NCBI GenBank assembly: GCA_963790305.1
Contig: CAWBOC010000005.1
Coordinates: 64,001 to 128,000 of the forward strand
From: an uncultured Gemmatimonadaceae bacterium
GTDB taxonomy: Bacteria; Gemmatimonadota; Gemmatimonadetes; Gemmatimonadales; Gemmatimonadaceae
Direction of reading: 5' to 3'
Length of the DNA: 64,000 nucleotides
Position numbers and translations under genes: made by a program. Positions 73-64,000 of this stretch are shown in pieces; position 1 is the first letter of the stretch, and each line of letters begins with the position of its first letter. The notes under the pieces were generated by a model. The model was not told the DNA's origin, searched no databases, and worked only from the letters and a program-made list of their open reading frames with translations.

Positions 73-191
73 GAGCTAGGAGTCAGGGGTCAGAGGGTGT
101 CAGGGAAGAGGTTTCAGGAGTCGCGAGAGCCGTTCGCCTCGAACCTTCAACCTGACACCCCCTGACCCCCTGACTCCCGACTCCTGACCCC
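73..191. repeat. Palindromic element family A (GGAGTCA/GGGGTCA heptamer arm ... TGACCCC/TGACTCC arm), copy A1
   Basis: Left arm ggagtcaggggtcagagggtgtcagg; right arm cctgacaccccctgaccccctgactcccgactcctgacccc. Confidence 0.9.
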
Positions 192-235
192 TCGTTCTTC
201 GTGAGACGGTGCGGGGAATGCGTAACGTCTGAAGC

Positions 236-1219
236 ATGACCGCCATTCGTCCCGTCGCGCGCGGGCCCCATATCGAGACCCCGGAGGAAGCGCAGGAGCG
301 GCTGCGGCGGGAGGTTCACGCCGGGCTTCGCGCGAATCCGAAGACGCTGCCGCCAAAGCTCTTTTACGATGACACCGGTGCGCGCCTGTTCGAGGAGATC
401 ACCAAGCTCGACGAGTATTATGTCACGCGCACCGAGCGCGAGATCATGCAGGCACACGCGGCGGAGATGGCGGCGCTCATCGGGCCGAATGCGCTTGTCA
501 TCGAGCCGGGAAGTGGCGAGGCGCTCAAAGTTCGCGTGCTGCTCGATCATCTCGAGAGTCCGGCCGCTTACGTGCCCATCGACATTTCGGCGGAGCAGCT
601 CGCCCGCGTCGCGCGCGAGCTCACTGAGGAATACCCGACCCTGGACGTCATCCCGCTCGAGGCCGACTTCACCCGCGGGCTATGTCTTCCCGACCTGCCC
701 GACACGACACGCCGTGCACGACGGGTCGCGTTCTTTCCCGGCTCGACGATCGGCAATCTCCATCCTCCGCAGGCAGTCGCGCTTCTCCGCGAGATCGCAC
801 GCGTCGTTGGGTCCGGCGGGGGACTGCTGCTCGGCGTCGACCTGCGAAAGGACCCTACCATCCTCCATGCGGCGTACAACGACGCGAGACGCGTCACCGC
901 CGCATTCAACAAGAACGCGCTGGTACGGCTCAACCGTGAGTTCGGTGCGACCTTCGACGTCGATCGTTTTCGGCACTACGCGTACTACAATCCGGTCGCG
1001 AATCGGGTCGAGATGCATCTCGTCAGCCTCGAGACGCATGAGGCAGAGGTCGATGGCGAGCGTTTCCTCTTCGAGCAGGGGGAGCCGATCTGGACGGAGT
1101 CGTCCTACAAGTATTCCCCCGCCGAGCTCGAGGGCTGTGCGCGCGAAGCTGGTCTGGTACTGCGGAAGAGGTGGCACGACCGACGCCGCTGGTTCATGGT
1201 GGCGTTCTTTGAGACATAG
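236..1219 (+). CDS. egtD: L-histidine N-alpha-methyltransferase (ergothioneine pathway)
   Basis: Motifs PKTLPPKLFYD, LFEEITKLDEYYVTRTE, EPGSG, FFPGSTIGN, AYND..VTAAFNKN, IWTESSYKY. Confidence 0.92.
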   Translation: MTAIRPVARGPHIETPEEAQERLRREVHAGLRANPKTLPPKLFYDDTGARLFEEITKLDEYYVTRTEREIMQAHAAEMAALIGPNALVIEPGSGEALKVRVLLDHLESPAAYVPIDISAEQLARVARELTEEYPTLDVIPLEADFTRGLCLPDLPDTTRRARRVAFFPGSTIGNLHPPQAVALLREIARVVGSGGGLLLGVDLRKDPTILHAAYNDARRVTAAFNKNALVRLNREFGATFDVDRFRHYAYYNPVANRVEMHLVSLETHEAEVDGERFLFEQGEPIWTESSYKYSPAELEGCAREAGLVLRKRWHDRRRWFMVAFFET

Positions 1220-1317
1220 GGGTGTCAGGGAAGAGGTTTCAGGAGTCGCGCGAGCCGTTCTCCTCCAACCTTCCCCCTGACACCCCCTGATTCCTGACCC
1301 CTGACTCCTGATCCCTA
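1219..1317. repeat. Family A element copy A2; 1220-1290 is a direct repeat of 95-165
   Basis: 66/71 identity by manual alignment; lies between convergent stop codons. Confidence 0.9.
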
Positions 1318-1845
1318 GTCTATCCGTGCCTTCCGCACGACGCTCCAGCTGCCGTTCCGCCTTACGAGCTGGTAGGCCTGCTCGATCCGGAACCGATTGT
1401 GCTCGCCGGTCGCTGGCGTGTCGTACCGATCCGCCAGCAGGTGAGTCTGCACGGAGTCGCCGGCCATCGCGAACACCTCCGAGAAGCGCACGACATAGCC
1501 GGGGAGGTCCGCTCGGCACACCGGCGTTCGCGTAGGAGCTCGCCGCTCCGGGCTGCACTCCCCTTTGGTGACGCCGGTGCCGCGCAGGGCGGCGCGCACG
1601 TCGGTACCTAACGCGTCGCCGGGGCCCTCGCCACCCACGCGGCTGAGCATCGTCGTGTCGACGAGAAGCGACAGCCCGGGATCGAGATCGAAGGCCCCTC
1701 CGAGCGAGGCGGCGTAGATCTTCGCCCGCTCAGTCGCCGATAGCTGTGCGACCACAAGACCGCGCCCGCGCGCGTAGCTCGCGTCCTTGGCGCAGCCGAG
1801 GACGAGCACGAGAAGAAGAACCTTTCGAAACGAGGGTGAGCTCAT
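1315..1845 (-). CDS. Hypothetical lipoprotein
   Basis: Lipobox-like VLG-C after a hydrophobic stretch; fills the gap between genes. Confidence 0.65.
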   Translation of the reverse strand: MSSPSFRKVLLLVLVLGCAKDASYARGRGLVVAQLSATERAKIYAASLGGAFDLDPGLSLLVDTTMLSRVGGEGPGDALGTDVRAALRGTGVTKGECSPERRAPTRTPVCRADLPGYVVRFSEVFAMAGDSVQTHLLADRYDTPATGEHNRFRIEQAYQLVRRNGSWSVVRKARID

Positions 1846-2602: not shown

Positions 2603-2743
2603 TTCTTGGCGCCACGAGCCGGACTGCTATCACCACAGAGGCACAGGGGCACAGAGAAGGGCGAACTACTGCAGCACTAGTTCGCCCTTCTCTGTGCCCT
2701 CTGTGCCTCTGTGGTGATAGCAGTCCGGCTCGTGGCGCAAGAA
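2603..2743. repeat. Palindromic element family B (ACCACAGAGGCACAGAGGGCACAGAG arms), about 65-bp near-perfect stem, copy B1
   Basis: Left half is the reverse complement of the right half apart from about 2 bulges; between convergent genes. Confidence 0.92.
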
Positions 2744-6514: not shown

Positions 6515-6534
6515 GTAAGACTTGTGTAAACCGA

Positions 6535-6566
6535 GGGGTCAGGAGTCAGGAGTCAGGGATCAGGGG
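6535..6566. repeat. Family A left arm upstream of the four-helix-bundle gene
   Basis: ggggtcaggagtcaggagtcagggatcagggg. Confidence 0.9.
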
Positions 6567-6643
6567 GTTGGAGGTGAATGGGATCGGTCCCGTCGAGTGG
6601 GAGAGATCGCTTACCCTGAACCCGTCCCTGATCCCATTCCCTC

Positions 6644-7036
6644 GTGATCCGCAGCTATCGCGACCTTCACGTCTGGCAGCTCGGGATCCGCCTGGTCATC
6701 GAGTCCTACAAGGTAGGACAGCAGCTGCCAGCGGATGAGCGCTTTGGCCTAACAGCTCAAATCCGAAGGGCCGCTATATCCGTACCAGCCAACATCGCCG
6801 AGGGTCACGGGCGCTCGTCGCGCGGAGACTATCGCCACCACGTCTGGATCGCCGCCGGCTCGCTTCGGGAACTCGAGACCCTTTTCGAGATCCTCATCGT
6901 GCTGAAATACCTCGACGCGAAATCACTGGAGAGGGTAAGAGGGCTCTGCGATGAGCTCGGCCGCATGCTGACACGACTCGCCAAGCGCCTCGAATCACCA
7001 GCTCCCCGCCGTTCCCTACAACCCCCTGATCCCTGA
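6644..7036 (+). CDS. Four helix bundle protein (TIGR02436 / 23S-rRNA-IVS / Avd-like family)
   Basis: SYRDLHVWQ, ERFGLTAQIRRAAISVPANIAEG, IAAGSLRELET signature motifs. Confidence 0.93.
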   Translation: MIRSYRDLHVWQLGIRLVIESYKVGQQLPADERFGLTAQIRRAAISVPANIAEGHGRSSRGDYRHHVWIAAGSLRELETLFEILIVLKYLDAKSLERVRGLCDELGRMLTRLAKRLESPAPRRSLQPPDP

Positions 7037-7057
7037 CCCCTGACTCCTGACACCTAG
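7023..7057. repeat. Family A right arm; supplies the stop codon of the four-helix-bundle gene
   Basis: cccctgatccctgacccctgactcctgacacctag. Confidence 0.9.
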
Positions 7058-13377: not shown

Positions 13378-14385
13378 ATGACAATTGCCCTATACCGCTC
13401 CACCACTCTTGTCCTCGCGCTTCCGGTGCTCTCGGCCTGCAGCACGATACGGGAGATGTTCCCGTCGCGTGAGGAAGTCTTCAAGCCGATCCCGGTGACC
13501 ATTGGGGACGTGCGCGTGATCGGCGAGGACACGGTCTACGTGCTCGAGTCCCCGGAGTACGAGCTCGTCGCACCAATGCGCGAGCTTCTGCCCAATGCAC
13601 GCAAGGCCCTCGATCACACCGCGCGCGAATACCGTCGCGTCTTTGGCGACGATCCGCAAAAGATCGTGGTCGAGCTGCGCGCGGTGTCGCGCGACCGCGT
13701 GGCGGACGGCTGGATCCCCGACACGGTAGAGCCCAACGAAGGGCCACGCCGCGCCGTCGCTCCCGCCATCGTCCCGGAGAAGCGCTCATCGCGTGCGCCG
13801 GTGGCTCCCGCAGGATTCCTGATGATGCGCGCCGCGCGCGCCTGGCTGCTTGCCCGCGCCGATTACCGCGTTGGCCGCTCACCCTCGGCGCCCACCGCAC
13901 AGGTTCGTTTTGGCGACGACGCACGCATCCCCGACTGGGTCGAGGATGCGCTCACCGAGCTGATCGGCGGATCACCGGCGCAGGAGATGTACGTGGCGCG
14001 CCTTGCTGAACGCGCGGAAACGGTGTCGTTGCGCGATGTGCTCGAGGCGACGCGACCGGAGCCCACGAAGGACGCGCAGCGTCGCGCTCAGCTTCCGCCG
14101 ACGTCAGCAACGCGACCTGCCGGCGGTGTCTTCATGGGCGGGCCAGCGAGCCGCGACCGGGGGAAGCTGGAGGGCGCGGAGCTCTTCCGCGCGCAGGCGG
14201 TCGCCTTCGCGATCTTCCTCGCCGAGCACGAGGGCCGCGAGTTCCTCGGCACCGTCACCGACCGCCTGCTCTCGGGCGAGTCCGCCGAGACGGCGCTCAC
14301 CGCCGCGACGACGTTGCCTGACGATTTGGCGGGGATGGAGAAAGCGTGGAAGGATTGGCTGAGAAAGCTGGCTGCGCGGAACTAG
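13378..14385 (+). CDS. Hypothetical lipoprotein (possible peptidase-MA-like fold)
   Basis: LSA-C lipobox, IPDWVEDAL, terminal EKAWKDWL. Confidence 0.7.
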   Translation: MTIALYRSTTLVLALPVLSACSTIREMFPSREEVFKPIPVTIGDVRVIGEDTVYVLESPEYELVAPMRELLPNARKALDHTAREYRRVFGDDPQKIVVELRAVSRDRVADGWIPDTVEPNEGPRRAVAPAIVPEKRSSRAPVAPAGFLMMRAARAWLLARADYRVGRSPSAPTAQVRFGDDARIPDWVEDALTELIGGSPAQEMYVARLAERAETVSLRDVLEATRPEPTKDAQRRAQLPPTSATRPAGGVFMGGPASRDRGKLEGAELFRAQAVAFAIFLAEHEGREFLGTVTDRLLSGESAETALTAATTLPDDLAGMEKAWKDWLRKLAARN

Positions 14386-14517
14386 GAGTCAGGAGTCAGG
14401 GGTCAGGGATCGGGGGAGTTAGGGAAAGACAAGGGGAAAGGAGAGCGAAGCTGTTCTCCTTTCCCCTTTGTTTGCCCTGACTCCCCCTGATCCCTGATCC
14501 CTGACTCCTGGCGCCTA
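14383..14517. repeat. Family A element copy A4 with a 14-bp perfect internal hairpin
   Basis: Heptamer arms plus aaggggaaaggaga/tctcctttcccctt; between convergent stops. Confidence 0.92.
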
Positions 14518-17121
14518 GTAATTGAACCAGTACGACGCCTTGATGAGAAACGTATTGTTCGGATGCAGCGCGAACAGATCTCTGTAGTCCTGGATTCCCT
14601 CGAAGTCGGACGGGCGGCCGACGTCGCGGAAGCGGCCCTGCTGCCACACGAAGAAGATCGTTGAGCCGGGGCGGTATTCCCAGCGCACGACGGCGTTGGT
14701 GTTGAGCTGCTTGAAGTCGAAGCCTCCCGGATCGCACGGAGTTGCGCTCGCGGCTCCATCGCAATCGCGCGTGAACGGCTGGAATCGGCCTTCGTACGAC
14801 ACGTTCTGCGGATCGGTGAGATCGCGGAGGTTCATGAACGTGCCCTTCGAGATGAAGGGCTGCGCGTAGAACTGGAGCGAGAGGTTCGGCGTCGCCGTGA
14901 AGTTGATGCGGGTCGTAACGTTCACCGTCGTTTGATCGAGCTCGGCGAAGGCGTAGTGCGTCGAGTCATGGCCGGTCGCGCCGAAGCGATCGAAGAACTG
15001 ATCGTCTTCGTGCTGCCACTCGTAATAGAAGTACACCCCGCCGTTGAACCGCGTCGAGAAGCGATAGTTGAACGACGGCTCCACCCAGTGACCCTTGCTC
15101 TGCCCTTCGTTGTTGCGCCAGGTGCCACCGAACAGGAAGGGAGTGATCTGCCACCGCGAATCCCCCTCCACGCCAGTCCAGACGTCGTAGCTCGCGTCAC
15201 GGCGGATGGCCGGGCCGCCGCGCGAGTTGCGATCATCATAGCTGCGACCGGCGAAATCGCTGACGGTGATTCCCCAGTTCAACCACCACTGGTTCTGGAG
15301 CTGGACATGCCAGTTGGTGTTCACGCCTTCGCGTGTCGGCAAGCCCTCCGACGACCAGTAGCGCCAGTAGTTGCTATTGAAGTTCGCGCGACGCCAGTAC
15401 TTGGTGGGCTTGGTGAATTGCAACGCGAACCAGTTGCGGAACATGATCTCGTCGGCACGCTGGAGCCAGCCGAGGTCGTTGAGCTCATACCCGGTCGAGT
15501 AGCGTTGCAGCACGCTCTGGAACCGCGTGATGCCGCCACCGAACTTGCTCATCGAGATGCGCTGCGCGTCTCCGATGAGATTGTCCTGGGTCGGATCATA
15601 TTCAGCGTCGTCATCCGGCCGCTGGTAGTAGTGCACGCTGCTGCGCTGAATGCTCGCGATCGCCTCCGGGTCGCCGCGCACCGTGCTCCCGGAGAGCATG
15701 GCAGCGACCTCGTAGTTGTTGCTCCAGAAGCGGTGCCGGCCGTCGAGGCCGATCGCGTACGCCTCACGAGCCATCGCCGGCCTGGTGACCGCATCGAGGC
15801 GACGGTTCACGGCCGTCATCATCAGGCCAATGTCGCTCGAGCCCTTGTTCAGATCCTGACGCAGGCGAGCCACCGCATAGTTCGTCTGTGGCTCGATCGT
15901 CGTGCCTTCCGCACCAACCTCGTGCTGCGTGAGGGCATTCAGAAACCCGACCGATAGCCCGCTGCCTAACCGTCCCGTGATTTTCGTGGCGCCGAGAATC
16001 GTGGTCGCCAGTGCATCCCCCGAGGCGCCGCCGAGCCCGGGGGCGCGGCCGATACGCCGCGAGTAGAACAGCCCGCGACAACCCGTGTCGATGTCCTGAC
16101 AGTTGGTCCGGAAGGTGAAGATGCCCATCCCTTCGAGAAAGAACGGCCGGCGCTCCTCGCGGAACGTCTCGAACGCGGTGAGGTTGAGCGTCGCCGGGTC
16201 GGCCTCGACCTGTCCGAAGTCGGGATTGATCGTCGCATCGAGCGTCAGGTTCGACGACAACCCGTACTTGATGTCGGCGCCGTAGGATCCGAGCGTCGGA
16301 TGGGTGTAGGTCTCGCGACCGGTGGCGTCCTCGCCTTCGTTCGTCACGCTCTTGACGACGGCGTACGGCGCGATCTCGAGGCGGCGCGGCGTCGGAATGT
16401 TCGTGATCCCGCCGATCTCGCCCGACTGCGAGACGTATCCCTGCTTCGATCGGCTATAGAGCGGCCAGCTGATGCGCGCGTTGGTACGAGCAATGTCGCG
16501 CACGATCATGAGGCCGAAGGTGTGCTCCGGCTTGTTCGCGAACCGCAGCTGACTGAACGGAATGCGGAACTCGGCAACCCAGCCCACGCTGTCGATGGTG
16601 GTGGCGACGTCCCACACCGCATCCCACGAGGCATCCTCGACGTTGTCATTGTAGACGTAGAAGTCCCGCTTGACGCCGGCGGGATTCACGCAGAACTGAT
16701 AGGCCGTGCGCTTGTCGTTGTACGAATCGATCACGAGCTTCACCTGCTCGGACTGCGTGCGCACGTCGCGCCGAGAGAGGAGCGAGATGATGCTGTCGGG
16801 TGCCGGGTCGTACATGCGCACGAGGACGTAGAGGTTCTTGTCATCGAACGTCACGCGCGCTTCGGTCTTGAAGCGCGTCTCGGCGCCCTCGGTGGGCTCG
16901 TACTCGAGGAACTTGTCAATGACCTGGGCCTGCGCCCACGCCGGATCGTCGGTGCGTCCATCGAGCACCGGAGCAATGGTGGCGCGGCTCGCGCTGGCGA
17001 TACGTGCATCGGCAAGGCCGGCAATGGCGACGCTGGTCGGCGGTGCACCATTCGAGGCAAGGATTTGCGCGGCCGCCAGGGAGGGTGCGACGGCGAGCGC
17101 GAACAGAACGAAGCGAAGCAT
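14515..17121 (-). CDS. CBM9-like/DUF5916 outer-membrane protein
   Basis: PVLDGRTDDPAW, TINPDFGQVEAD, ERRPFFLEG, RWEYRPGS, terminal YWFNY. Confidence 0.85.
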   Translation of the reverse strand: MLRFVLFALAVAPSLAAAQILASNGAPPTSVAIAGLADARIASASRATIAPVLDGRTDDPAWAQAQVIDKFLEYEPTEGAETRFKTEARVTFDDKNLYVLVRMYDPAPDSIISLLSRRDVRTQSEQVKLVIDSYNDKRTAYQFCVNPAGVKRDFYVYNDNVEDASWDAVWDVATTIDSVGWVAEFRIPFSQLRFANKPEHTFGLMIVRDIARTNARISWPLYSRSKQGYVSQSGEIGGITNIPTPRRLEIAPYAVVKSVTNEGEDATGRETYTHPTLGSYGADIKYGLSSNLTLDATINPDFGQVEADPATLNLTAFETFREERRPFFLEGMGIFTFRTNCQDIDTGCRGLFYSRRIGRAPGLGGASGDALATTILGATKITGRLGSGLSVGFLNALTQHEVGAEGTTIEPQTNYAVARLRQDLNKGSSDIGLMMTAVNRRLDAVTRPAMAREAYAIGLDGRHRFWSNNYEVAAMLSGSTVRGDPEAIASIQRSSVHYYQRPDDDAEYDPTQDNLIGDAQRISMSKFGGGITRFQSVLQRYSTGYELNDLGWLQRADEIMFRNWFALQFTKPTKYWRRANFNSNYWRYWSSEGLPTREGVNTNWHVQLQNQWWLNWGITVSDFAGRSYDDRNSRGGPAIRRDASYDVWTGVEGDSRWQITPFLFGGTWRNNEGQSKGHWVEPSFNYRFSTRFNGGVYFYYEWQHEDDQFFDRFGATGHDSTHYAFAELDQTTVNVTTRINFTATPNLSLQFYAQPFISKGTFMNLRDLTDPQNVSYEGRFQPFTRDCDGAASATPCDPGGFDFKQLNTNAVVRWEYRPGSTIFFVWQQGRFRDVGRPSDFEGIQDYRDLFALHPNNTFLIKASYWFNY

Positions 17122-17273: not shown

Positions 17274-17370
17274 GAGGTCGTCGAGGGTGTCGAGGTCGTC
17301 GAGGCAATCGAGGGAACGTCGTCGCCTCTCCTCGATCACGTCGACGACCTCGACATCCTTGATCACCTTG
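17274..17370. repeat. Palindromic element family C (9-mer GTCGAGGTN arms), copy C1
   Basis: gtcgagggtgtcgaggtcgtcgagg ... cctcgatcacgtcgacgacctcgac. Confidence 0.88.
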
Positions 17371-20084: not shown

Positions 20085-20207
20085 CAACGAGCCGACTGCC
20101 ATCACCACAGAGGCACAGAGGGCACAGAGGAGGGCGCACTGCAGGCTGCAGTGCGCCCTCCTCTGTGCCCTCTGTGCCTCTGTGGTGATGCAGTTCAGGC
20201 TCGTCGC
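20085..20207. repeat. Family B element copy B2
   Basis: catcaccacagaggcacagagggcacagaggagggcgcactgcag and its exact reverse complement. Confidence 0.92.
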
Positions 20208-21538: not shown

Positions 21539-21616
21539 TCGAGGGTGTCGAGGTGATCGAGGAGAGCAACGACGTTCCCTCGATTACCTCGACGACCTGG
21601 ATTACCTCGAGTACCT
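21536..21616. repeat. Family C element copy C2 (inverted relative to C1)
   Basis: Core is the reverse complement of the C1 core with 2 differences. Confidence 0.85.
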
Positions 21617-35200: not shown

Positions 35201-35207
35201 TTTCTAT

Positions 35208-40415: not shown

Positions 40416-40417
40416 AG

Positions 40418-40508: not shown

Positions 40509-40517
40509 GGCCTTTAG

Positions 40518-40675: not shown

Positions 40676-40682
40676 TTGCCGT

Positions 40683-41565: not shown

Positions 41566-44457
41566 ATGCACGCGTCCCGCTGCGCCGCGCTCCTGCTCGC
41601 GGCCGTTCTCGTCGCCCCAATCGGTGCACAGCAAGCGCACGACGCCGAGTACACGGCGAAGATTCGAGAGCTTACGCCGACCGACGTGAAGTGGAAGTTC
41701 ACCACCGAGCTCGTCGACCACCTCCCGGCATCGGCGACGGTACCGTCCCCACTCAAGGTCCTCGGCTACGTTCCCGGCACTCCCGGGCGTCTGTCATACG
41801 TCGCCGACATCAATCGCTACTTCCGTGCACTCGACGCGGCGTCGCCTCGCGTGTCGCTCGTCTCACTCGGCACGAGCGACGAAGGGCGCGAGATGCTCCT
41901 CGCGGTCATCGCCGACGAGGCGACCATGTCGCGCCTCGAGGAGTATCGGACGATGCTCGGTCGCATCGCGGATCCCCGCGGCCTGACGGCGGAGGAGAAG
42001 ACGCGCCTGCTCGGCAGCGCGAAGCCCATCTACTGGCTCACCGGATCGATCCACTCTCCGGAGATCGGCAGTCCGGAGATGCTGATGGAGCTCGCGTATC
42101 GGCTGGCCGTCGACGAGTCGGAGTTCGTGAAGACGATCCGTTCCGGCGTCATCACCCTGATCACACCGGTGACGGAGGTCGACGGACGCGACCGCATGGT
42201 GGACGTCAACAAGCTCACGCGGCAGCTCAAGCTCGGGCCGCAGGGCGTGTCGCTCATCTACTGGGGGAAGTACACCGCACACGACAACAACCGTGACGGC
42301 ATGGTGCTCTCCCAGAAGCTCACGCAGAACGTGATGAAAGGATTCCTGCACTGGAAGCCGGTCGTTTTTCACGATCTGCACGAGTCGGTGCCGTTCCTGT
42401 ACACGAGCACTGGCACCGGTCCGTACAACGACGAGTTCGACCCGATCGTGATTCAGGAATGGCACACCCTGGCGTACCAGGAGATCACCGAGCTCACGCG
42501 GCGCGGGCTACCCGGCGTGTGGACACACGGCTTCTACGACGGGTGGGCGCCTAACTACATGCTGGCGATCGGCAACCTCCACAACAGCATCGGTCGTTTC
42601 TACGAGACGTACACATCGACCGGCACCGATTGTCAGACGGTGAAGCTTCCGGCGACGCAGACGGAGCGCCGCTGGGACCGCCCGAACCCGCCCGTGAACG
42701 GCGTGAAGTGGTGCATGCGCAGCAACATCAACTACCAGCAGTCGGGTGTGATGATCGCGCTCAAGTACGTCGCCGACCACTCGCGCACCTTCCTCGACAA
42801 CTATCTCGCGAAAGCCGATCGGATGGTGCGGAAGGGGCAGACGTCGGCACCGTACGCGTTCGTGATTCCGCGCGACCAGCGTCGCGTCGCGGAAGCGGCC
42901 GATCTCGTGAATCTGTTCCGGGCCCACGGGGCGGAAGTGCACGTCGCCGACGGAGACTTCGAGATCAAGGGGGCAGGAGTCAGGAGTCAGGGATCAGGGG
43001 GGGCCGGGGCACGAGGGGATAGCGCAGGTGCTGCGCGCCCCGTGTCACCTGACTCCGCAACGCGCCCCCTGGTTCCTGACTCCCGACCCCTGACCCCTAC
43101 GACAGTCAAACGCGGCGACTGGATCGTGCGCCTGGATCAGCCGTATACGGCGACCGTCCGTACGCTGCTCGCCGTCCAGAAGTACAAGGCCGACGATCCG
43201 CCGCCGTACGACGACACCGGCTGGACCCTCGACGAGCTGCGGCACGTCGTGACGTACAAGATCAGCGACTCGACCGTCCTCGCGAAACCGATGACCTTGA
43301 TGACGGCCGACGCCAAGGTCGAAGGAAGCCTGTCCGGAGACGGTGGTGTCGTGCTCGTCGAGCACCTGGGCGACTGGCGCTCGGCGGTGCTTCCCTGGAA
43401 GGTGGGAGGAACGCGCGTGCGTGCAGCCGAGGTGGCGTTTACCGCGGCAGGGCGCACGTGGCCGGCGGGCACGTACCTCGTTCCCGCCGACGGGCGCGCG
43501 CGCACCGCGGTCCGTGACCTCGGCCTAACGGCTGTCGCGGTCGCCAGCGCACCCACCGTTCGTACGCACGACGTCAAGCCGCCACGCGTGGCGCTCGTGC
43601 ACTCCTGGCTCGAGACGCAGAACGAAGGGTGGGTGCGCTACGCCTTCGACCAGCTCGGTGTGCCCTATACGTACATCTCTGATCAGTCTCTCGCGGCATC
43701 CGGCCGTCTCGACGCCTTCGATGTCCTGGTCTTCCCGCACGTGAATGGCTCGGCGCAGGCGCTGATCAACGGTCGCCCAATGACAGGGCCGCCGATTCCG
43801 TGGAAGAAGACGGCGCTCACGCCGAACCTCGACAAGTGGGACACGACCGACGACATCCGCCGTGGCATGGGGCTGGACGGAGCGGCAGCGTTGCGACGCT
43901 TCGTGGAGCGCGGCGGCGTTCTCATCACGACCGGCAATACGTCGCGTCTTCCGATCACGTTAGGCTTCAATCCGACGGTCAGTGAAGCGGAGGCCCGAAC
44001 GCTGCGTGCTCGCGGCGCGATCTTCCGTGCGAAGGGCGACACGACGGGAAGTCCCATTCTGTACGGCTACGAGCGCTCGACGTTCCCGGTGTATTTCAAC
44101 CAATCGCCCCTCCTCTCGGTGCAGCCGCCCGACACGACTGGACGTCTCGATGCGGTCGATCCTGCCATCATCGCCGACATCGAGCGCCAGCGCGGACGCA
44201 TCGTGCTGCGATTCCACGACAAGGCCGATTCATTGCTCGTGTCCGGACTGCTCGTGAACGGTGGTGAGATGACGGGCAAGGCGGCGGTGGTCGATGCACC
44301 GGTCGGACGGGGTCATGTCGTGCTCTTCGGCATCCGTCCAATGTGGCGTTGGCAGTCCCAGGGCACGTTCGCGATGCTGCTGAATGCAATGGTGCACTGG
44401 GATCATCTGGGCACGATCACAAGGGTAGAGAAGCCAACGGTGGCGGCAGGGCAATGA
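41566..44457 (+). CDS. M14 family zinc carboxypeptidase, exported
   Basis: IHSPE, DGRD, DNNRD, HDLHE motifs. Confidence 0.88.
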   Translation: MHASRCAALLLAAVLVAPIGAQQAHDAEYTAKIRELTPTDVKWKFTTELVDHLPASATVPSPLKVLGYVPGTPGRLSYVADINRYFRALDAASPRVSLVSLGTSDEGREMLLAVIADEATMSRLEEYRTMLGRIADPRGLTAEEKTRLLGSAKPIYWLTGSIHSPEIGSPEMLMELAYRLAVDESEFVKTIRSGVITLITPVTEVDGRDRMVDVNKLTRQLKLGPQGVSLIYWGKYTAHDNNRDGMVLSQKLTQNVMKGFLHWKPVVFHDLHESVPFLYTSTGTGPYNDEFDPIVIQEWHTLAYQEITELTRRGLPGVWTHGFYDGWAPNYMLAIGNLHNSIGRFYETYTSTGTDCQTVKLPATQTERRWDRPNPPVNGVKWCMRSNINYQQSGVMIALKYVADHSRTFLDNYLAKADRMVRKGQTSAPYAFVIPRDQRRVAEAADLVNLFRAHGAEVHVADGDFEIKGAGVRSQGSGGAGARGDSAGAARPVSPDSATRPLVPDSRPLTPTTVKRGDWIVRLDQPYTATVRTLLAVQKYKADDPPPYDDTGWTLDELRHVVTYKISDSTVLAKPMTLMTADAKVEGSLSGDGGVVLVEHLGDWRSAVLPWKVGGTRVRAAEVAFTAAGRTWPAGTYLVPADGRARTAVRDLGLTAVAVASAPTVRTHDVKPPRVALVHSWLETQNEGWVRYAFDQLGVPYTYISDQSLAASGRLDAFDVLVFPHVNGSAQALINGRPMTGPPIPWKKTALTPNLDKWDTTDDIRRGMGLDGAAALRRFVERGGVLITTGNTSRLPITLGFNPTVSEAEARTLRARGAIFRAKGDTTGSPILYGYERSTFPVYFNQSPLLSVQPPDTTGRLDAVDPAIIADIERQRGRIVLRFHDKADSLLVSGLLVNGGEMTGKAAVVDAPVGRGHVVLFGIRPMWRWQSQGTFAMLLNAMVHWDHLGTITRVEKPTVAAGQ
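42974..43098. repeat. Family A element inserted in frame within the M14 peptidase
   Basis: caggagtcaggagtcagggatcagggg ... cctggttcctgactcccgacccctgacccct. Confidence 0.85.
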
Positions 44458-44490
44458 GATCAACGTCCGCGGACGTTGATCTTCCACATC

Positions 44491-45948: not shown

Positions 45949-46044
45949 GAGGTGGTCGAGGTCGTCGAGGATGTCCAGGTGATCGAGGGAACGTCGTCGC
46001 CTCTCCTCGATCACCTCGCCGTCCTGGACGACCTCGACCACCTC
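45949..46044. repeat. Family C element copy C4
   Basis: 33-nt core identical to C1. Confidence 0.9.
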
Positions 46045-47971: not shown

Positions 47972-48007
47972 GGGCAGAGAGCTCCGATGAAGAGTGGGCC
48001 TGGACGC

Positions 48008-48140
48008 CGAATGCGGAACGCGGAATGCGGAATCTGCGATAGACCATCCATTAAGCGGGGTCTTGTCTAATTCCGCATTCCGCATTCCGCATTGATGGTG
48101 GGCGTCCTATTTGCAATCCGCAATCCGCAATCCGCAATCG
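48008..48140. repeat. Family D element copy D3 with an additional AATCCGC arm
   Basis: gcggaacgcggaatgcggaat ... attccgcattccgcattccgc ... (caatccg)x3. Confidence 0.85.
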
Positions 48141-49077: not shown

Positions 49078-51151
49078 ATGGCCGACTTCATCACCGCGGT
49101 CTACATCTCGTTCATCATCCAGGCCGGTGGCGCGCTCCTCACGGCCGCGGTGTTTCGTAGTTTTCAACGGTACTACCAGAAGGCGTATCTCACGCACCTC
49201 CAGTGGAGCTGGCTCGCCCTCAGCGTCCACCTGCTTGCCGGCGCGGTCGGGCTCTATCTGTCGAGCACTTTCGACGCGACGCACCCATTTCGTCTCCTCG
49301 TCAACATCATCGCCGGGATCGCGGGATTCACGCAGATCCCGCTCGTGCTTTTTGGGACCTATGAGCTGACGACCGGGCGCTCGATCTCTGCCCGTTTTGT
49401 GAAGCGCGCCCTGCTCGCCGCCGCGACGACGGGCCTCGTTACCGCGATCGTGTTCGTCTGGAAGGAAGATGCCGGCTTCGCGCGATTCCTCGCGCGCGTC
49501 GGGCTGCGCGCGATTCTCTCCGGCACAGGGTTCCTCGCGGCCGCGTTCGGGATCTGGCGCGTGCGCGCGACCGTACAGGGACTGGGCCCGCGGATGGTGA
49601 GCGGCGCCTTTTTTGTTTACGGACTTCTCCAGCTGCACTACCTCGGCGTCGCGATCTACGAATCGATCTCACAGAACTACCCGGCCTACGTCTCGTACAC
49701 CGGCTTCCTCGACATCCTGATGTACTTCCTGATGGCGCTCGGCACCGTCATCTCGGCTGCTCGAGAACGAGCAGAAGACCGCGATGCAGGCCGCCGCGCA
49801 GATCGAGCATCTCGCCTATCACGACACGCTCACTGGCCTGCCCAACCGACAGCTCTTTCTCGACCGGCTCAATCTCGCCATCTCGCACGCGCACCGGTCG
49901 CAGCGCCGGCTGGCCGTATTCTTTCTCGATCTCGATCGCTTCAAGGTCATCAACGATTCGCTCGGCCACGCGATCGGCGATCGTCTGCTGCAATCGATCT
50001 CACGTCGCCTCACCGGACTCCTGCGCGAAGGCGACACGGTCACGCGCATCGGAGGCGACGAGTTCACGATCCTCGTTCCGCATCTCCAGCACTCCGACGA
50101 CGCCATCGTCGTCGCGCGTAAAGTGCGTGACGCGCTGAAGCATCCGATCGAGATCGATGGCCGCGAGCTCTACGTCTCGACGAGTATCGGCATCTCGCTC
50201 TACCCGAACGACGGCGAGGACGCCAACGCGCTGCTGCGCAACGCCGACGCCGCCATGTACCGCGCCAAGGCACAGGGCCGCGACACCTTCCGGCTGTACG
50301 CGCCGGCGATGAACGCGAAAGCGCTCGAGCAGCTCGCGCTCGAGAACGGGCTGCGCAAGGCGATCGCGAATGGCGAGCTCATCATGCACTACCAGCCGAT
50401 CGTCAGCTTCGCGACCAGCCGCGTCGTCGGCGTCGAGGCGCTGATTCGGTGGAATCACCCCGAGCTTGGACTGCTCTATCCGGCGGACTTCATCTCGCTC
50501 GCCGAAGCGACGGGACTCATTGGACCGCTCGGGGAATGGTCGCTCAAGGAGGCATGCACGCAGGTGAAGGAGCTGCGCGAGCGCGGCCTCTCCAACCTGC
50601 ACGCGGCCTGCAACCTGTCGGTGCGACAGATCCAGCAGCTCGACTTCGTCGAGATGATCTCATCGATCCTTCACGACACCGGCCTGCCGGCAGAGGCGCT
50701 GGATCTGGAGATCACCGAGAGCATCGCGATGCAGAGCGACGACGACACCATCGAGAAGCTGCGCGCGGTGAAGCGCCTCGGCGTGAGAATCTCGATCGAC
50801 GACTTCGGCACCGGCTACTCGTCGCTCAGCGCCCTCCGTCTCTTCCCGGTGGATTCGCTCAAGATCGATCAGTCCTTCGTGCACGACATCACCGCGACCT
50901 CGGGCGACGCCGCGATCGCCACCGCCGTCATCGCCATGGCGCACTCACTCGACCTGACCGTGATCGCGGAGGGTGTGGAGACCGAGGGCCAGCTGGCGTT
51001 CCTGCGCGGCCGCGGTTGTAACGCGTACCAGGGCTACTACGTGAGTCACCCGCTGACGGCAGAGGAGTGCGAGGCGGTGATCCGGGCTCATGATGGGATG
51101 CCGATCGGGGTCAAGAAGAGAAAGACGGGCCGCATAGCGAAAGCAGGTTAG
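49078..51151 (+). CDS. Membrane GGDEF-EAL diguanylate cyclase/phosphodiesterase, frameshifted near 49756
   Basis: About 7-TM N-domain; DTLTGLPNR, GGDEF, EAL, DDFGTGYSS. Confidence 0.88.
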
Positions 51152-51158
51152 GGAAAAC

Positions 51159-52721
51159 CTACCTGACCCGTATCGCATCAGCGATCACGACGTACCCAGA
51201 CGTAGTCCAGCGAGACAGCTGAACACGATTCCACCCAGCGGGGAAGCTCCAGGTCCCCAGGGTATTCCATGCGGCCCCATGCTGCTGCTGGTTCACGTAC
51301 ACCGTCGCCAGCCTCTCCCCCGCTGACGTCAGCACGAGATACGGCGCGCTTGGCGCGCGGTTCGTGCCCGAGGTCCACCAGGCATCGATCGTTCGCGTTG
51401 CGGGCGCGTCGAGATAGAACCAGAACGTCGCTGGATCGCTCACCGCCTGCGTCGCGGCGAAAGCGTACCCGGAGCCATAGTGCCCCGCCGTCGCGGCGGA
51501 TTCGGTCCACGACGCCGAGAATTCCGCGCGGCCGCGCGCGGGATCGTTCGCGCCGTTGTTGCTGTCGATGATGAGCGTGCTGCCGCAGTGCTGCTCGATG
51601 CGGCGCAGATAGTCCGCCCATGGCCAGTTCGGCCCCGGGTCCGTCCGGTTGTGCGGCTGGAGCTTGCCGTGCGCGACGATGTGCAGCTGGTCGCGCGGAA
51701 TCCCGCGATCCCGCGTGATGTCGCAGACCAGCCGTGCCGACGCGTCGATCTGCGACGTCGACCACGATGGCTGCGATGCGAAGCCGGCGTGCTCGATGCC
51801 GATCGTGAAGTGATTGCTCTGTTGACCGTTGCGCGCGCAGTCATGATTGGAATTGAGCGTGCAGTCGTACGTCGCGGCGATGTGCCAGGCGCGCTTCGGC
51901 TCCTCGACGAGCTGCGAGATCTCGGAGCCATCCTCGTTCACGACGTAGTGCGCGCTCACGTTCGAGACGGGATTGACGAGCCACGCCCAGCAGCCGGCGT
52001 AGTTCCCCTCGCACGTGTGGATGATGATCATGTGCGGGGTGCCGGCGTCGCCTGGCGCGCGATCATCGAAGTTGGGTGACGGCCTCCAGATCGCGCTGGC
52101 GAAGTCCGCGCTCGACGTCGTGATGATCGATGGGCGTGGAAAGGCGACGCTGGCGTCGATGCGCGGGATGCGTGTGACGACGCGTCCCCGCTGCTCCACG
52201 TCCAGTCCGCGCCGCAACAGACCGTAGACCGCATCGTGCACGTACGACCCGACCGCCTGCGGATGCGAGATCCCCGAGTATCTCGCGACCGCCGCCGCCC
52301 AATCTCCGATTCGAGTGCGGTCGACCGAGAGCTCCTCGGCGTAGGCGCGCAGCAGCGCTGCCCCCGCACGGATGTTCGCGCGTGCATCGGTCTGTGCTCC
52401 CGCGATCGACACGCCAGCCAATGTCGCGCCGCGAATCAGTCTCTCGCCACGCAGTGCCATGACGCCAAACGCCGCCGGCTGTCCGTCGAATTCCGTGTCG
52501 CCGCGGACCATCTGCATCCGCGTTTCTGCGAACGCCACCGCCTTGAGGAGGGCCGAGGGAACACCAAACTCGCGCGCCGCCGCCTCGAAGTGCACGTCGA
52601 GCGGCCCTGCCTGGAACGTTGCCGATGACGCGACGTCCGTCACGCGCGTCGGCAGGTCCGAGCAGGCGAGGATGACCGGGACTACGAGCCCCGGAAGCAG
52701 GAACGACCGAGTTCGTCTCAT
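51159..52721 (-). CDS. N-acetylmuramoyl-L-alanine amidase (Amidase_2) with N-terminal lysozyme-like and C-terminal carbohydrate-binding-like domains
   Basis: IIIHT, SAHYVV, AWH, IGIEH, DPGPNWPW; VVIADAIRV. Confidence 0.85.
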   Translation of the reverse strand: MRRTRSFLLPGLVVPVILACSDLPTRVTDVASSATFQAGPLDVHFEAAAREFGVPSALLKAVAFAETRMQMVRGDTEFDGQPAAFGVMALRGERLIRGATLAGVSIAGAQTDARANIRAGAALLRAYAEELSVDRTRIGDWAAAVARYSGISHPQAVGSYVHDAVYGLLRRGLDVEQRGRVVTRIPRIDASVAFPRPSIITTSSADFASAIWRPSPNFDDRAPGDAGTPHMIIIHTCEGNYAGCWAWLVNPVSNVSAHYVVNEDGSEISQLVEEPKRAWHIAATYDCTLNSNHDCARNGQQSNHFTIGIEHAGFASQPSWSTSQIDASARLVCDITRDRGIPRDQLHIVAHGKLQPHNRTDPGPNWPWADYLRRIEQHCGSTLIIDSNNGANDPARGRAEFSASWTESAATAGHYGSGYAFAATQAVSDPATFWFYLDAPATRTIDAWWTSGTNRAPSAPYLVLTSAGERLATVYVNQQQHGAAWNTLGTWSFPAGWNRVQLSRWTTSGYVVIADAIRVR

Positions 52722-52785: not shown

Positions 52786-53008
52786 AACATCATTCCGGCA
52801 TCCAGGTTCAAAGGGGGGACGCGGATGAGGCGGATGCAGCGGATCAGGCGGATCGTTCCTGGCGCAGAGAACTCTCCTCGCGCAGGAAAAAGCAACCGCT
52901 TTTTGCTCCTGGGAAGGAGAGATCGCGGTGCACGGAGCAATCCGCCGCATCCGCTGCATCCGCCGAATCCGCGTCCCCCCTTTGAACCTGGATGCCAGTA
53001 ATGATGTT
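52786..53008. repeat. MITE-like palindromic element family H (about 41-bp terminal IR followed by GCGGATNNN 9-mer arms)
   Basis: 30-bp perfect IR ggcatccaggttcaaaggggggacgcggat; inner aaaaagc/gcttttt hairpin. Confidence 0.85.
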
Positions 53009-55318: not shown

Positions 55319-55830
55319 AGGTGTTCGCGCTCGCGGCATTGGCACTGACGCTCGTCTCGACGTCTGCATCCGCGCAGGACGGCGGGCTTCCCGTTGGTGC
55401 GGTCGCGCCGTCGGTGTCCCTCGAGACGCTCGACGGCAAGCGCATGGAGCTCGGCTCGCTGATCGGGAAGACGCCCCTCGTGCTCGAATTCTGGGCGACG
55501 TGGTGCGGCAACTGCGAGGAGCTCGAGCCGACGTTTCAGGCGGTGCAGAAGAAGTTCGCGGGGAAGGTGCGCTTCGCGAGCATCGCCGTGGCGATCAACC
55601 AGTCGCCGGAGCGCGTCCGCCGCTGGGTCGCGCGGCACAAGCCGGGACGGGATGTTTTCTACGATTACGCCGGAGACGCCGCCGAGCAGTATGACGCGCC
55701 GGCAACGTCGTTCGTGGTGATCGTGAATCGCGAAGGGCGCGTGACCTACACCGGCGTAGGTGGCAAGCAGGATCTCGAAGGCGAGATCGCGAAAGCGATG
55801 AGGAACCCTAGGGCGCTGGATAAGCGCTAG
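55315..55830 (+). CDS. TlpA-family thiol-disulfide oxidoreductase
   Basis: FWATWCGNC; ATGA overlap with the CcdA gene. Confidence 0.9.
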   Translation: MKVFALAALALTLVSTSASAQDGGLPVGAVAPSVSLETLDGKRMELGSLIGKTPLVLEFWATWCGNCEELEPTFQAVQKKFAGKVRFASIAVAINQSPERVRRWVARHKPGRDVFYDYAGDAAEQYDAPATSFVVIVNREGRVTYTGVGGKQDLEGEIAKAMRNPRALDKR

Positions 55831-55898
55831 GAGCGCTGGGGAAGCGCTAAGGGTTTTTCAGCGCTATTCCAGCGCCCCAGCGCTTTTCCAGCGCTCTA
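55808..55898. repeat. Palindromic element family G (AGCGCT-based 9-10-mer arms), copy G1
   Basis: gcgctggataagcgctaggagcgctgg ... ccagcgccccagcgcttttccagcgct. Confidence 0.82.
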
Positions 55899-58942: not shown

Positions 58943-59027
58943 TGGCGCTGGAATAGCGCTGAAGAAGGGCTGGAACAGCGCTGGGGTTCCAGCGCTCCTC
59001 CAGCGCTCCCAGCGCTGTTCCAGCGCC
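58943..59027. repeat. Family G element copy G2
   Basis: ggcgctggaatagcgctg...ccagcgctcccagcgctgttccagcgcc. Confidence 0.82.
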
Positions 59028-59033
59028 TGTTCG

Positions 59034-59930: not shown

Positions 59931-60599
59931 ATGTCGCCTGTGACCATCGTTCTCGCTCTCGTGCTGCTCATCGGCACCGCGTTGCATGGCGTCGGTGCGC
60001 TCCTGCACCCGATGCTTGCCGGTGACGGCGCCACACAACTTCGCACGATCGCCGACATGGCGCACTGGCGAGAGCTCCACCTGGTCATGCTCGCCGGCAG
60101 CGGCCTCATCGTCGCGGGCGTGTGGGTTCGGCTGGTGGGAGATCGCGCGTTCGTTCGTCCCCCGCTCGTCGCCGCCCTCGCGGTGATCTCCATCGGGGTG
60201 ACCATCAACGCGCTCAACATCGCGTACATGACGGGCGCCGGGTGGCACATGGCCTCGCAATTTGCCGCGGGCGATGCCTCCATGGTGCCGCTGTTCGACG
60301 CGACCCATCCCATCGGCCTCATGGCCGCCCGCTTCGGCAACTTCATCGTCGCGCTTGGTGCCCTCGTGCTCGGCTGGGCGGAATGGCACGACGCCGAGCC
60401 GCGCCGTGTCGATGCGGTACTGGCGTGGATCGCGGGGGTGGGCGGTCTGGTTGGCGCGATCTTCTTCCTGGAGTCGAGCCGTATCGCGCTCGCCGCGGTC
60501 GCCCTGCTCTCGGCTTGGCAGGTCGTCACCGCGCTCAGGGCCCTTACCTTGTCGGTGAGGGGGTCGCGCCGTACGATCACCGAGGATACCAGGAGTTAG
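59931..60599 (+). CDS. Multi-pass membrane protein
   Basis: About 6 TM; LHP and W..LH motifs. Confidence 0.75.
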   Translation: MSPVTIVLALVLLIGTALHGVGALLHPMLAGDGATQLRTIADMAHWRELHLVMLAGSGLIVAGVWVRLVGDRAFVRPPLVAALAVISIGVTINALNIAYMTGAGWHMASQFAAGDASMVPLFDATHPIGLMAARFGNFIVALGALVLGWAEWHDAEPRRVDAVLAWIAGVGGLVGAIFFLESSRIALAAVALLSAWQVVTALRALTLSVRGSRRTITEDTRS

Positions 60600-60688
60600 G
60601 AGTCAGGAGTCGGGAATCAGGGGAACAGCGCTGCGCCGCAGGCGTGCGTATCTGACAACTGACACCTGACGTCTGATCCCTGACGTCT
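60590..60688. repeat. Family A-like element with a hybrid right arm
   Basis: caggagttaggagtcaggagtcgggaatcagg ... ctgacaactgacacctgacgtctgatccctgacgtc. Confidence 0.82.
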
Positions 60689-60711
60689 TCGGACGTTCAC
60701 CTTGGAGACCC

Positions 60712-62385: not shown

Positions 62386-63773
62386 GAACGATCGCGATGG
62401 TATTGGTGAGCACGGCGCTTGGCGCGGTCGCGCTCCCGGTCGCCGCGCAGCAAACGACCGCGGTGCGCGACACGGCCCGCCTGCTCTCGTATCCGATTCC
62501 TCCCGCGGGCCGGCTGGTGGCGATCACCAACGCCACGATCATGACGGCCTCGAATGGAACGATTCCGAAAGGAACGGTGGTCATCCGCGATGGAAAGATC
62601 GCCGCAGTCGGAGCCAATGTCGCCGTGCCGGCCGGTGCGCAGGTCATTGACGGAAATGGGAAGTACGTGATTCCGGGCATCGTCGACGCGCACTCGCACA
62701 GCGCGGCCGAATCCATCAATGAGGGGACGCAGTCGATCACGGCGCAGGTCCGCATGGAGGACGTTCTGCGTCAGGATGCGCTCGGACTCTATCGCGAGCT
62801 CGCGGGCGGGGTCACGACCCTCAACATCCTGCACGGATCGGCAAACACCATCGGGGGCCAGAACGCAACGGTGAAGGTCCGCTGGGGATTGCCCGCCGAC
62901 AGTCTGCTGTTTCAGGGCGCGCCTCCGGGAATCAAGTTCGCGCTCGGCGAAAACGTGAGGCAGACGAACCGCACCGTGCTGCCGGGTCAGCAACGGCGCT
63001 ACCCGCGCACGCGCATGGGCGTGGAGGAGCTGCTGCGCGACGCATTCACGCGCGCGCAGGAGTATCGCCGCGAATGGCAGGAATACGAGCGCGGCAGACG
63101 GAATGTGAAGAAGGGTCAGACCGCACCGATTGCGCCGAAGCGCGACCTCCAGCTCGATGCGCTCGTGGAGGTGCTCGAGGGGAAACGGCTCGTGCATTGC
63201 CACTCGTACCGCGCGGACGAGATCCTGATGATGCTCCAGGTCGCGAAGGACTTTGGCTTCCGCGTCGCGAGCTTCCAGCACGTGCTCGAGGGCTACAAGG
63301 TCGCCGACGAAATTGCCGCCGCCGGCAGCGGCGCGTCGACCTTCGCCGACAACTGGGCGTACAAGCTCGAGGCCTTCGACGCGATTCCGCATAACGCGGC
63401 GCTCATGGCGGAGCGCGGCGTCCGCGTCTCGATCAACTCCGACTCCGACGAGCGTGCACGGCGTCTCTACCAGGAGGCCGCGAAGGCCATGCACTACGGC
63501 GGCGTCTCGGAGGACGAAGCGCTGAAGATGATCACGCTCCACGCCGCCTGGCAGCTGGGCATCGACAAGCGGGTCGGCTCGATCGAAGTGGGCAAGGATG
63601 CCGACCTCGCCATCTTCAATGGCCATCCCTTCGCGCCCGCGTCGCGGGTGGAGATGACGTTGATCGACGGGCGCGTCTTCTTCGATCGCAGCACCGCGCC
63701 AACGCTCGAGTACCTGATGGAGCTCATCCGCCAGAAGCAGGGACCGCGGCAGGTGACGGAGGTGCTGCCATGA
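62382..63773 (+). CDS. Amidohydrolase (metal ligands intact)
   Basis: PGIVDAHSH, KFALGEN, HCHSYRADE, GKDADL. Confidence 0.9.
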   Translation: MRTIAMVLVSTALGAVALPVAAQQTTAVRDTARLLSYPIPPAGRLVAITNATIMTASNGTIPKGTVVIRDGKIAAVGANVAVPAGAQVIDGNGKYVIPGIVDAHSHSAAESINEGTQSITAQVRMEDVLRQDALGLYRELAGGVTTLNILHGSANTIGGQNATVKVRWGLPADSLLFQGAPPGIKFALGENVRQTNRTVLPGQQRRYPRTRMGVEELLRDAFTRAQEYRREWQEYERGRRNVKKGQTAPIAPKRDLQLDALVEVLEGKRLVHCHSYRADEILMMLQVAKDFGFRVASFQHVLEGYKVADEIAAAGSGASTFADNWAYKLEAFDAIPHNAALMAERGVRVSINSDSDERARRLYQEAAKAMHYGGVSEDEALKMITLHAAWQLGIDKRVGSIEVGKDADLAIFNGHPFAPASRVEMTLIDGRVFFDRSTAPTLEYLMELIRQKQGPRQVTEVLP

Positions 63774-64000
63774 GGGGCTTTAGATTGCGGATTGCGGATT
63801 GCGGATGGTCGGCAATCGTAGTGCTCGCGAGCGTTGCATCCGCCCAGACACCGATCCGCAATCAGCAATCCGCAATCGTCGTGATCCAGAATGCGACGAT
63901 TGTGCCCGTGACGGGCCCCCGCATTCAGAACGGGAGCATCGTTCTCCGCGGTGGGCGCATTGAAGCCGTCGGGCCGAACGTCGCAGCGCCCGGCGACGCG
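63770..64000 (+). CDS. Amidohydrolase-family protein, partial (runs off the window)
   Basis: ATGA overlap, GGAGG RBS; IQNATIVPVTGPRIQNGSIVLRGGRIEAVG. Confidence 0.8.
   Translation, partial: MRGFRLRIADCGWSAIVVLASVASAQTPIRNQQSAIVVIQNATIVPVTGPRIQNGSIVLRGGRIEAVGPNVAAPGDA
63783..63878. repeat. Family D element D4 translated as part of a signal peptide
   Basis: gattgcggattgcggattgcgga ... atccgcaatcagcaatccgcaatc inside the ORF. Confidence 0.82.

Follow-up and report, generated by a model that had tools for sequence, protein, structure and literature searches.

The window analysed here, 64,000 nucleotides from an uncultured Gemmatimonadaceae bacterium (C5:64001-128000 of the genome G000, which has 4.31 Mb in 13 contigs and is 94% complete), is dotted with hairpin elements whose arms consist of short tandem words. 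Judging from sequence comparisons, we consider it moderately probable that these dispersed hairpins, whose ten main families have one gene-carrying copy each, are copied, and replace one another, at the DNA level under the guidance of word-specific proteins. The proposed partners are four-helix-bundle proteins (TIGR02436, Avd-like) and GxxExxY proteins (PF13366). Two points go beyond the original prediction, which was made from the letters of the window and ascribed all families to a single mechanism maintaining different words in one layout: one element of the window encloses such a partner gene, and one family can take the place of another at a given site. The common layout was indeed found, and the partner genes sit in the arms, but probably two partner protein families are involved and not one mechanism.

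The window contains 22 two-armed hairpins without a gene, one gene-carrying cassette and one lone arm (Table 1). This is one element per 2.8 kb, close to the predicted one per 3 kb, and all predicted families were present at their predicted places. Each of the 22 hairpins folds far better than shuffles of its own bases (z -3.6 to -26; 40 shuffles each). A strict detector, defined by a tandem arm and a reverse-complement arm within 160 nt, found 15 elements in the window and none in any of the control windows (Markov, 20; dinucleotide, 30; codon/intergenic, 30). The elements are thus beyond what chance delivers in 80 shuffled or simulated windows. Contig C9 gave 94 calls, 1 Mb of Markov sequence none. 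All detector counts are lower bounds, 7 of the 22 window hairpins having been missed. For the whole of G000 there were 458 calls, or 448 loci once overlaps were merged, a few of them possibly counted twice in contig-end overlaps of ~30 kb. According to our own motif rules they belong to the families D (106), C (87), A (81), G9 (56), B (26), GTGCTC (17), F (16), H (15), CGCAGAGG (14), E (12), J (5), I (5), G11 (3), K (3) and L (2). Three to five units were present in 764 of 896 arms and unit periods of 7 and 9 predominated, which agrees with the predicted 3-5 units of 7-10 nt except for the 11-nt unit of the G elements in the window. As predicted, the 5' arm was the purine-rich one, in 456 of the 458 calls and in 61 of 63 cassettes of other genomes; since the two strands of an element read the same, we take this as a trait of some 15 families and not as 458 independent cases. 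The elements are dispersed inverted pairs with tandem-word arms, and CRISPR-type clustered direct repeats with unique spacers were not seen, so that they are, as had been stated, neither CRISPR nor classic repetitive extragenic palindromes (REPs). An Rfam scan of the window returned only tRNA.

All six four-helix and all four GxxExxY nuclease genes of G000 were enclosed by word arms, with ten different words. The co-occurrence of repeats with these two gene families, as suggested in the original prediction, was therefore seen in ten out of ten cases. The words are A, C, D, E-like, F and G9 for the four-helix genes and B, H, J and CGCAGAGG for the GxxExxY genes, one of whose cassettes is cut by a contig start. 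Small host genes taken as control lay in arms in 3 of 298 cases. A genus-built profile search found no further partner genes in G000; only the two gene families sit in arms. The ten cassette-bearing families make up 418 of the 448 loci and have one gene-carrying copy each. The four-helix gene of the window matched the profile with an E value of 7e-32 and structure 2gsc with 4e-19, and its nearest named relatives, in Gemmatimonadaceae genomes, are 92% and 88% identical. It is antisense to both host neighbours, its cassette is at the same site in three congeners (G004, G005, G008), and as RNA the arms would form a long stem around the open reading frame (ORF). All six four-helix cassettes of G000 lie between protein genes and none in the rRNA genes checked. 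Most four-helix genes ran opposite to the host genes on either side (among distinct flank pairs, 12 antisense vs 3 co-oriented), and the host gene downstream was convergent in 23 of 27. The arrangement extends over many phyla: from 80 four-helix relatives, 77 with enough flank, periodic inverted arms were obtained in 63 of 77 compared to 46 of 400 mismatched pairs. Arms were also detected at 23 of 34 GxxExxY loci of relatives (this count and the tallies over 31 genomes include the unpublished G015, on which no conclusion rests). In the part of the supplement of the Xanthomonas heptamer paper used here (PMC4692102), repeat 15 overlaps the start of XCC0516, which is the four-helix structure 2gsc.

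In eight congeners (48 proteins), protein clade, word and locus agree. Most cassettes are at orthologous sites; the G9 cassette is found at four loci. The four-helix genes are under purifying selection, with a median dN/dS of 0.08-0.15 in five clades (62 of 86 pairs were usable after dropping saturated ones). Across nine congeners the exact word GGGCCA occurs 119, 44, 99, 127 and 37 times in genomes with the cassette and 0, 0, 1 and 0 times in those without, carriers and non-carriers being interleaved on the species tree. CTCAGGGT[GC]CTC is present 278, 157, 125 and 64 times in four carriers as opposed to 19, 0, 10, 1 and 19 times in five others, and the B word 61, 69 and 45 times in three closely related carriers as opposed to 0-4 times in 28 other genomes. 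The C word is found only 5-6 times in three genomes that carry another word in the cassette at the C locus; the C locus of G006 ends at a contig break. G022, which belongs to another genus and has neither gene, has 2 matches versus 47, 24 and 8 in three congeners, and no hairpins in 59 kb. A single GxxExxY enzyme serving all families was considered and rejected: G020, G026 and G028 have four-helix cassettes and words and no GxxExxY match, and four-helix families thrive there without it.

Each partner protein would thus be likely, as far as sequences tell, to recognise its own word and to drive the copying of its own hairpins over those of other families. This co-occurrence also fits cassettes that are passive members of a thriving family. 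The genes could then be passengers, kept for another purpose, while any hairpin made of words is copied by a host enzyme or by a mobile one that escaped detection, the arms of cassettes being rewritten like any slot, and arms at fixed cassette loci do switch their word between congeners, as ordinary slots do. The four-helix fold has no known catalytic site, and families outlive damage to their gene. We nevertheless regard passenger genes as fairly unlikely, since only two gene families are found in arms, protein clade tracks word, genomes lacking a cassette have next to none of its word, and no RAYT, DUF559, IS110 or reverse transcriptase is available in G000 (a reverse transcriptase is encoded in 6 of the 31 genomes).

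Several observations speak against protein-guided copying and have to be weighed here, the missing catalytic site among them. G008 has 82 C matches though ~280 nt of its C gene are deleted between intact arms; G000 likewise has a broken C gene and G004 a truncated one. No A cassette was found in G001 and G002, in spite of 92 and 84 A matches, one A locus of G001 being at a contig end; G005 has many H copies and no GxxExxY match, its H locus being at a contig break. In G000, three of the six four-helix and one of the four GxxExxY genes are frameshifted, which is weak evidence since the assembly also breaks ordinary genes, and 30 of the 448 loci belong to families without a cassette in this genome. 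A family I cassette was not found in G000 and is present in G004, G005 and G008. The congeners are mutually related, and the word counts per genome are hence not independent. Clean empty sites were not found, apparent ones resembling remnants or differing too much, nor was a constant target-site duplication in the inspected flanks. Arms of another family flank only 7 of 448 loci, one of these a misclassified H, by which frequent visible nesting is rejected. Finally, self-mirroring, where the two halves of a copy resemble each other more than they resemble other copies, is limited to family B (23 vs 2; A 3 vs 66, H 0 vs 13).

Dispersed copies numbering 37, 25 and 13 have non-repetitive loops in common, and therefore whole elements, loop included, have been copied, though 151 of 268 loops are without a relative. 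Local copying was rejected: near-identical pairs within 100 kb numbered 2 of 21, with 1 expected. Orthologous gaps of G004, G005 and G008 revealed a memory of the slot. A slot filled in G000 was filled in 33 of 34 comparisons, in 17 of 34 by another family, with related words (E, GAGGAAC) counted as different families and gaps >450 nt or lacking both neighbours left out; a slot empty in G000 was filled in 9 of 87. In non-convergent gaps alone, filled slots stayed filled in 13 of 14. Ten loci have a four-helix cassette in congeners but not in G000; at nine of them G000 had a hairpin or a remnant, which in six cases belonged to another family. 'Empty' sites of G000 often carry tiny terminal palindromes, so loss apparently proceeds by collapse. 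Two contigs of run X5 bridge sites of C elements of the window without the element, with other letters in between. In a separate case, two A cassettes of G008 at different loci (L010, L091) are near-identical sisters on the tree, whereas the second locus carries another variant of the arms in G004 and G005; here a whole cassette has been copied or converted recently.

Twelve elements of G000 lie in frame within genes, four of which were compared across genomes. In an E1-alpha-like gene (name read from sequence) a hairpin is present at one codon in 9 of 9 genomes and in a second enzyme gene at one codon in 8 of 8 alignable genomes, with four or five different words at each site. In the isoleucyl-tRNA synthetase gene (also named from sequence) about five hairpins are clear and the rest decayed, and the fourth site, that of the window, has family A in five genomes. 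The different words at these sites are a letter or two apart. This would be expected if nothing moved, that is, if each site had an ancient palindrome, its words drifting through slippage and correction between the arms, and if families were alike by mutational convergence; the variable numbers of units and the self-mirrored B copies would be explained as well. Such immobility is very improbable in our view, because distant copies have non-repetitive loops in common, slots change between unrelated periods (7, 8-9, 11), and words are genome-specific and track cassettes.

Classical MITEs (transposable elements of the miniature inverted-repeat type) or ends of a known insertion sequence (IS), moved in trans by a transposase, would account for the fixed terminal inverted repeats of H and B. 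There is also an IS3-like element in the loop of one family H hairpin, with a 3-nt duplication (C12:2200-4100, L172; again at the overlapping contig end C7:4712-5988). This is the only repeated IS of G000 (single-copy IS of other families were not screened); its 25-nt ends contain no hairpin word, and the duplication in the hairpin is its own. The families are thus not the ends of this IS. Moreover, RAYT (PF01797, 0 matches), DUF559, IS110 and reverse transcriptase (RVT_1) were not found in this 94% complete genome and are rejected as movers, so that the co-occurrence with RAYT, one of those suggested for a check, was not seen; Y1 enzymes are likewise missing. From the suggestion of selfish MITE-like units, copying remains, and a transposase and a target duplication were not found. 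Altogether, we give MITEs or IS ends hardly any credence.

An element is present in 144 of 529 gaps between convergent genes, in 240 of 2850 tandem ones and in 50 of 526 divergent ones, where gap types are partly in error as genes were called with our own codon model. Convergent gaps are most often filled, 10 of 13 in the window, as the original prediction had it, yet most elements sit in tandem gaps. Elements abut stop codons: 373 of 544 neighbouring stops lie within 12 nt, compared to 74 of 348 starts, and 138 of 150 elements in tandem gaps are nearer the stop. It is tempting to read this as a sign of host RNA elements, i.e. 3'-end shields, RNase III sites or landing pads for proteins on mRNA, to which Avd-like rings bind and which selection for a 3'-end hairpin keeps in their slots. 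Avd binds RNA (bioRxiv 2023.10.23.563531, in part), and in the section of PMC4990558 used here RNase III cleaves at the first heptamer of the arm of the Coxiella intervening sequence. However, a T-run follows only 24 of 448 stems, unlike in intrinsic terminators, and the transcribed strand carries no surplus of G·U pairs (293 vs 272; counted by elements, 83 vs 85; a test of moderate power). The main role in termination or 3'-end RNA protection that had been considered for the repeats is thus not supported. G·U pairs are more frequent on the G-rich strand (80 vs 48 elements), probably from mutational skew. Slot memory holds in coding sequence as well, and RNA elements leave the copying of loops unexplained. 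We therefore judge a host RNA element to be unlikely and DNA-level copy-and-replace likelier, because T-tails are rare and G·U pairs have no bias to the transcript; an RNA role can be a secondary use of hairpins that are copied as DNA.

How could the two proteins guide copying? Structure 2gsc has five chains, and in the Avd pentamer each of the five protomers takes part in binding an RNA stem-loop (bioRxiv 2023.10.23.563531). Given five subunits and 3-5 words per arm, a pentameric four-helix ring might read the tandem words on an extruded hairpin, as single-stranded or cruciform DNA, and, lacking a catalytic site of its own, would recruit repair or recombination enzymes of the host. The match of the four-helix family to the Avd model NF033474 is weak (29.5 bits, cut-off 80). 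GxxExxY proteins could themselves cut hairpins: residues E26, D66, E76, K78 and Q90 are invariant, the full catalytic set is present in 20 of 20 aligned proteins, and the predicted structure (pLDDT 94.8) has a PD-(D/E)XK fold near Cas4 and Hjc. The best match in a fold search was Cas4 (Z 7.9, root-mean-square deviation 3.7, 99 aligned), and the search returned no close solved relative. Function was given as unknown in the portion of a 2012 survey consulted (PMC3424549). Fold-back repair after the cut would yield self-mirrored copies, which fits the private mirroring of the B copies, and of B only. Existing hairpins would be the preferred targets, the old family being overwritten, nested into or collapsed to a small palindrome, and selection would keep the outcomes behind stop codons and in tolerant protein loops. 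In its most far-reaching form, which we put forward as no better than a tentative possibility, these are intragenomic replicators free of transposase and reverse transcriptase, in which an Avd-like pentamer or a GxxExxY nuclease makes host enzymes copy its own hairpin over others, and ten teams compete for slots, even in coding sequence.

Table 1 Hairpin elements, remnants and the partner gene in the window (positions in the window).
Position	Strand	Feature	Remarks
78..190		Family A hairpin	Inner part near-repeat of 1217-1318; other A subtype here in G004, G008
1217..1318		Family A hairpin, short left arm	Begins at egtD TAG; site empty in G003
2609..2738		Family B hairpin (CACAGAGG, GxxExxY-linked)	Near-perfect palindrome; G-type in G005, none in G001, G003
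6534..7055		Family A gene-carrying cassette	Arms 6534-6565 and 7024-7055, word GGAGTCA; stem of ~40 bp closes around ORF
6644..7036	+	Four-helix-bundle gene (23S_rRNA_IVP / TIGR02436, PF05635, Avd-like), 130 aa	Stop codon in right arm
14381..14519		Family A hairpin	Fills convergent gap; both stop codons within its ends
17275..17368		Family C hairpin (GTCGAGGTN)	Family I in G004, G005, G008; missing from run X5 contig that bridges site
20100..20190		Family B hairpin	A in G005, G008; 11-mer G in G004
21532..21616		Family C hairpin	Missing from run X5 contig that bridges site
23749..23846		Family B hairpin	98% palindrome
24312..24422		Family F hairpin (TCAGAAT)	
31272..31380		Family E hairpin (GAGGAGT)	Word GAGGAAC in G004, G008
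34200..34283		Family C hairpin	
35077..35204		Family D hairpin (GCGGAAT)	Inner stem shared
38844..38990		Family D hairpin (GCGGATT variant)	
40417..40510		Family I hairpin (CTGCGAG/CTGCGAA)	Adjoins tRNA-Cys
40645..40680		Family F lone right arm	
42968..43098		Family A hairpin in frame in 963-aa gene 41566-44457	Also in G001, G004, G005, G008; short linker in G003
44458..44481		24-nt palindrome	Full F hairpins at site in G004, G005, G008
45949..46044		Family C hairpin	Loop common with 17275-17368; B in G004, G008; GAGGAAC in G005; GGGCCA in G001
48004..48139		Family D composite, three arms	
51149..51161		13-nt remnant: two stop codons and loop	Full A hairpins at site in G004, G005
52797..52996		Family H hairpin (GCGGATNNN, GxxExxY-linked)	200 nt; terminal repeats fixed
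55808..55895		11-mer AGCGCTGG hairpin	Three other families at slot in G004, G005, G008
58945..59032		11-mer AGCGCTGG hairpin	9-mer G in G004, G005
60590..60690		Chimera	Left arm family A, right arm family F-like
63783..63878		Family D hairpin	Overlaps next gene's start

Some further features should be mentioned in this connection. The direct repeat around egtD was tried as a gene cassette and rejected; it consists of two hairpins of A subtypes. The 24-nt palindrome of Table 1 is likely a collapsed family F element, and the tRNA-Cys gene (40517-40589) sits between the family I hairpin and the lone F arm. A 25-member loop subtype of family A, with two inner stems around a CTCATCAGATGAG core, occurs in both orientations within A arms (e.g. 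C5:287034, 490544) and is possibly a separate insert. Both EF-Tu genes of G000 (C9:409231-410560 and C9:434127-435467) have family D hairpins on both sides. Purine-rich words in several C, E and A arms (e.g. 34200-34283 of the window) resemble Shine-Dalgarno sequences, and family C contains GAGGTGATC, exactly complementary to the 3' end of 16S rRNA; these likenesses may be chance. Next to the cassette of the window, 7058-8545 encodes a serine hydrolase of the beta-lactamase/AmpH type, under all named cut-offs. Two TGCTAG..CTAGCA palindromes at 6460-6496, upstream of a BlaI-family repressor gene (6051-6437) and kept in G003, G004, G005 and G008, are likely its operator. Genes seemingly split by frameshift at 1902-2601, 28593-30518, 48952-51151 and 52644-53755 probably reflect assembly indels, since 1902-2601 is one intact gene in five congeners.

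Two orphan protein families that are very widespread, TIGR02436 and GxxExxY, receive a proposed function from this analysis, and the long-unexplained heptamer repeats of bacteria a proposed origin. If true, these would be the second and third partnerships of a gene with a repeat, formed by unrelated proteins, and the life style would have arisen repeatedly; gene-word teams would also explain the intervening sequences with S23p genes and the heptamer repeats of Xanthomonas and cyanobacteria. Moreover, these small proteins would amount to a natural library in which word specificity can be switched, and one genus already gives matched protein-word pairs, some of them a letter or two apart. The hairpins also rewrite protein loops in frame. 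In this respect they recall the Rickettsia palindromic elements, which are in-frame palindromes in protein loops, and, in their words, the short tandemly repeated repetitive (STRR) sequences of cyanobacteria, heptamer arrays that form hairpins; for neither do we know of a partner gene or of replacement of one family by another. A literature search on in-frame palindromes gave nothing relevant.

We found no paper that pairs TIGR02436 or GxxExxY genes with these repeats, in a search that left subscription journals mostly uncovered and excluded bioRxiv supplements; the part of the Beggiatoa TAACTGA paper that was covered (PMC4679880) does not mention four helix, 23S or GxxExxY. For the published systems compared here, statements refer to the covered parts of the respective papers. 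The 23S_rRNA_IVP genes noted within cas loci (PMC3936711) could be explained by cassettes landing between genes. The intervening sequences in 23S rRNA genes, as in Coxiella (PMC4990558; bioRxiv 2024.02.27.582315), likewise have a PF05635 ORF within inverted repeats, with tandem heptamers upstream, and ORF-less forms exist, whereas the cassettes described here are between protein genes, mostly antisense, and have hundreds of gene-less copies. The GGGAATC repeats of Xanthomonas and the GGGGA(C/T)T repeats of Nostoc (PMC4692102) are also purine-rich heptamer arrays of about four units, with 70-75 inverted pairs per genome. There, they were interpreted as G-quadruplex motifs, with one word per genome studied and, in the covered text, no link to XCC0516, whereas most of the words found here have no GGG tracts. 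Avd of diversity-generating retroelements is a related pentameric barrel that binds a stem-loop (bioRxiv 2023.10.23.563531), but the match to the Avd family is below cut-off and G000 has no reverse transcriptase.

The only comparable gene-and-repeat partnership that we found in print is REPIN-RAYT. The layout is REPIN-like: elements of ~100 nt with two inverted repeats around a variable spacer, in hundreds of mostly extragenic copies. As with REPIN-RAYT, there are several systems per genome (bioRxiv 2021.07.10.451892), a resident gene at a fixed locus is flanked by its own repeat, and the number of repeats tracks the gene, with the exceptions of families C, A and H here. REPINs also occupy conserved spaces with mixed types that 'may be overwritten' (13 of 20; REPORTH, bioRxiv 2024.10.14.618302). 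However, the defining tests of REPIN-RAYT fail: the arms are direct tandem words of 7-11 nt and not 14-nt palindromes, an own palindrome per arm of the REP style is absent (some words hold only palindromes of 4-6 nt), and in place of a RAYT/Y1 enzyme the flanked genes encode an Avd-like ring or a PD-(D/E)XK nuclease. Furthermore, there are ten systems in one genome, copies in frame, and cassettes some of which change locus. By analogy, the life history would be that of REPIN-RAYT with unrelated proteins, and the system would be categorically new if these proteins prove to be the movers.

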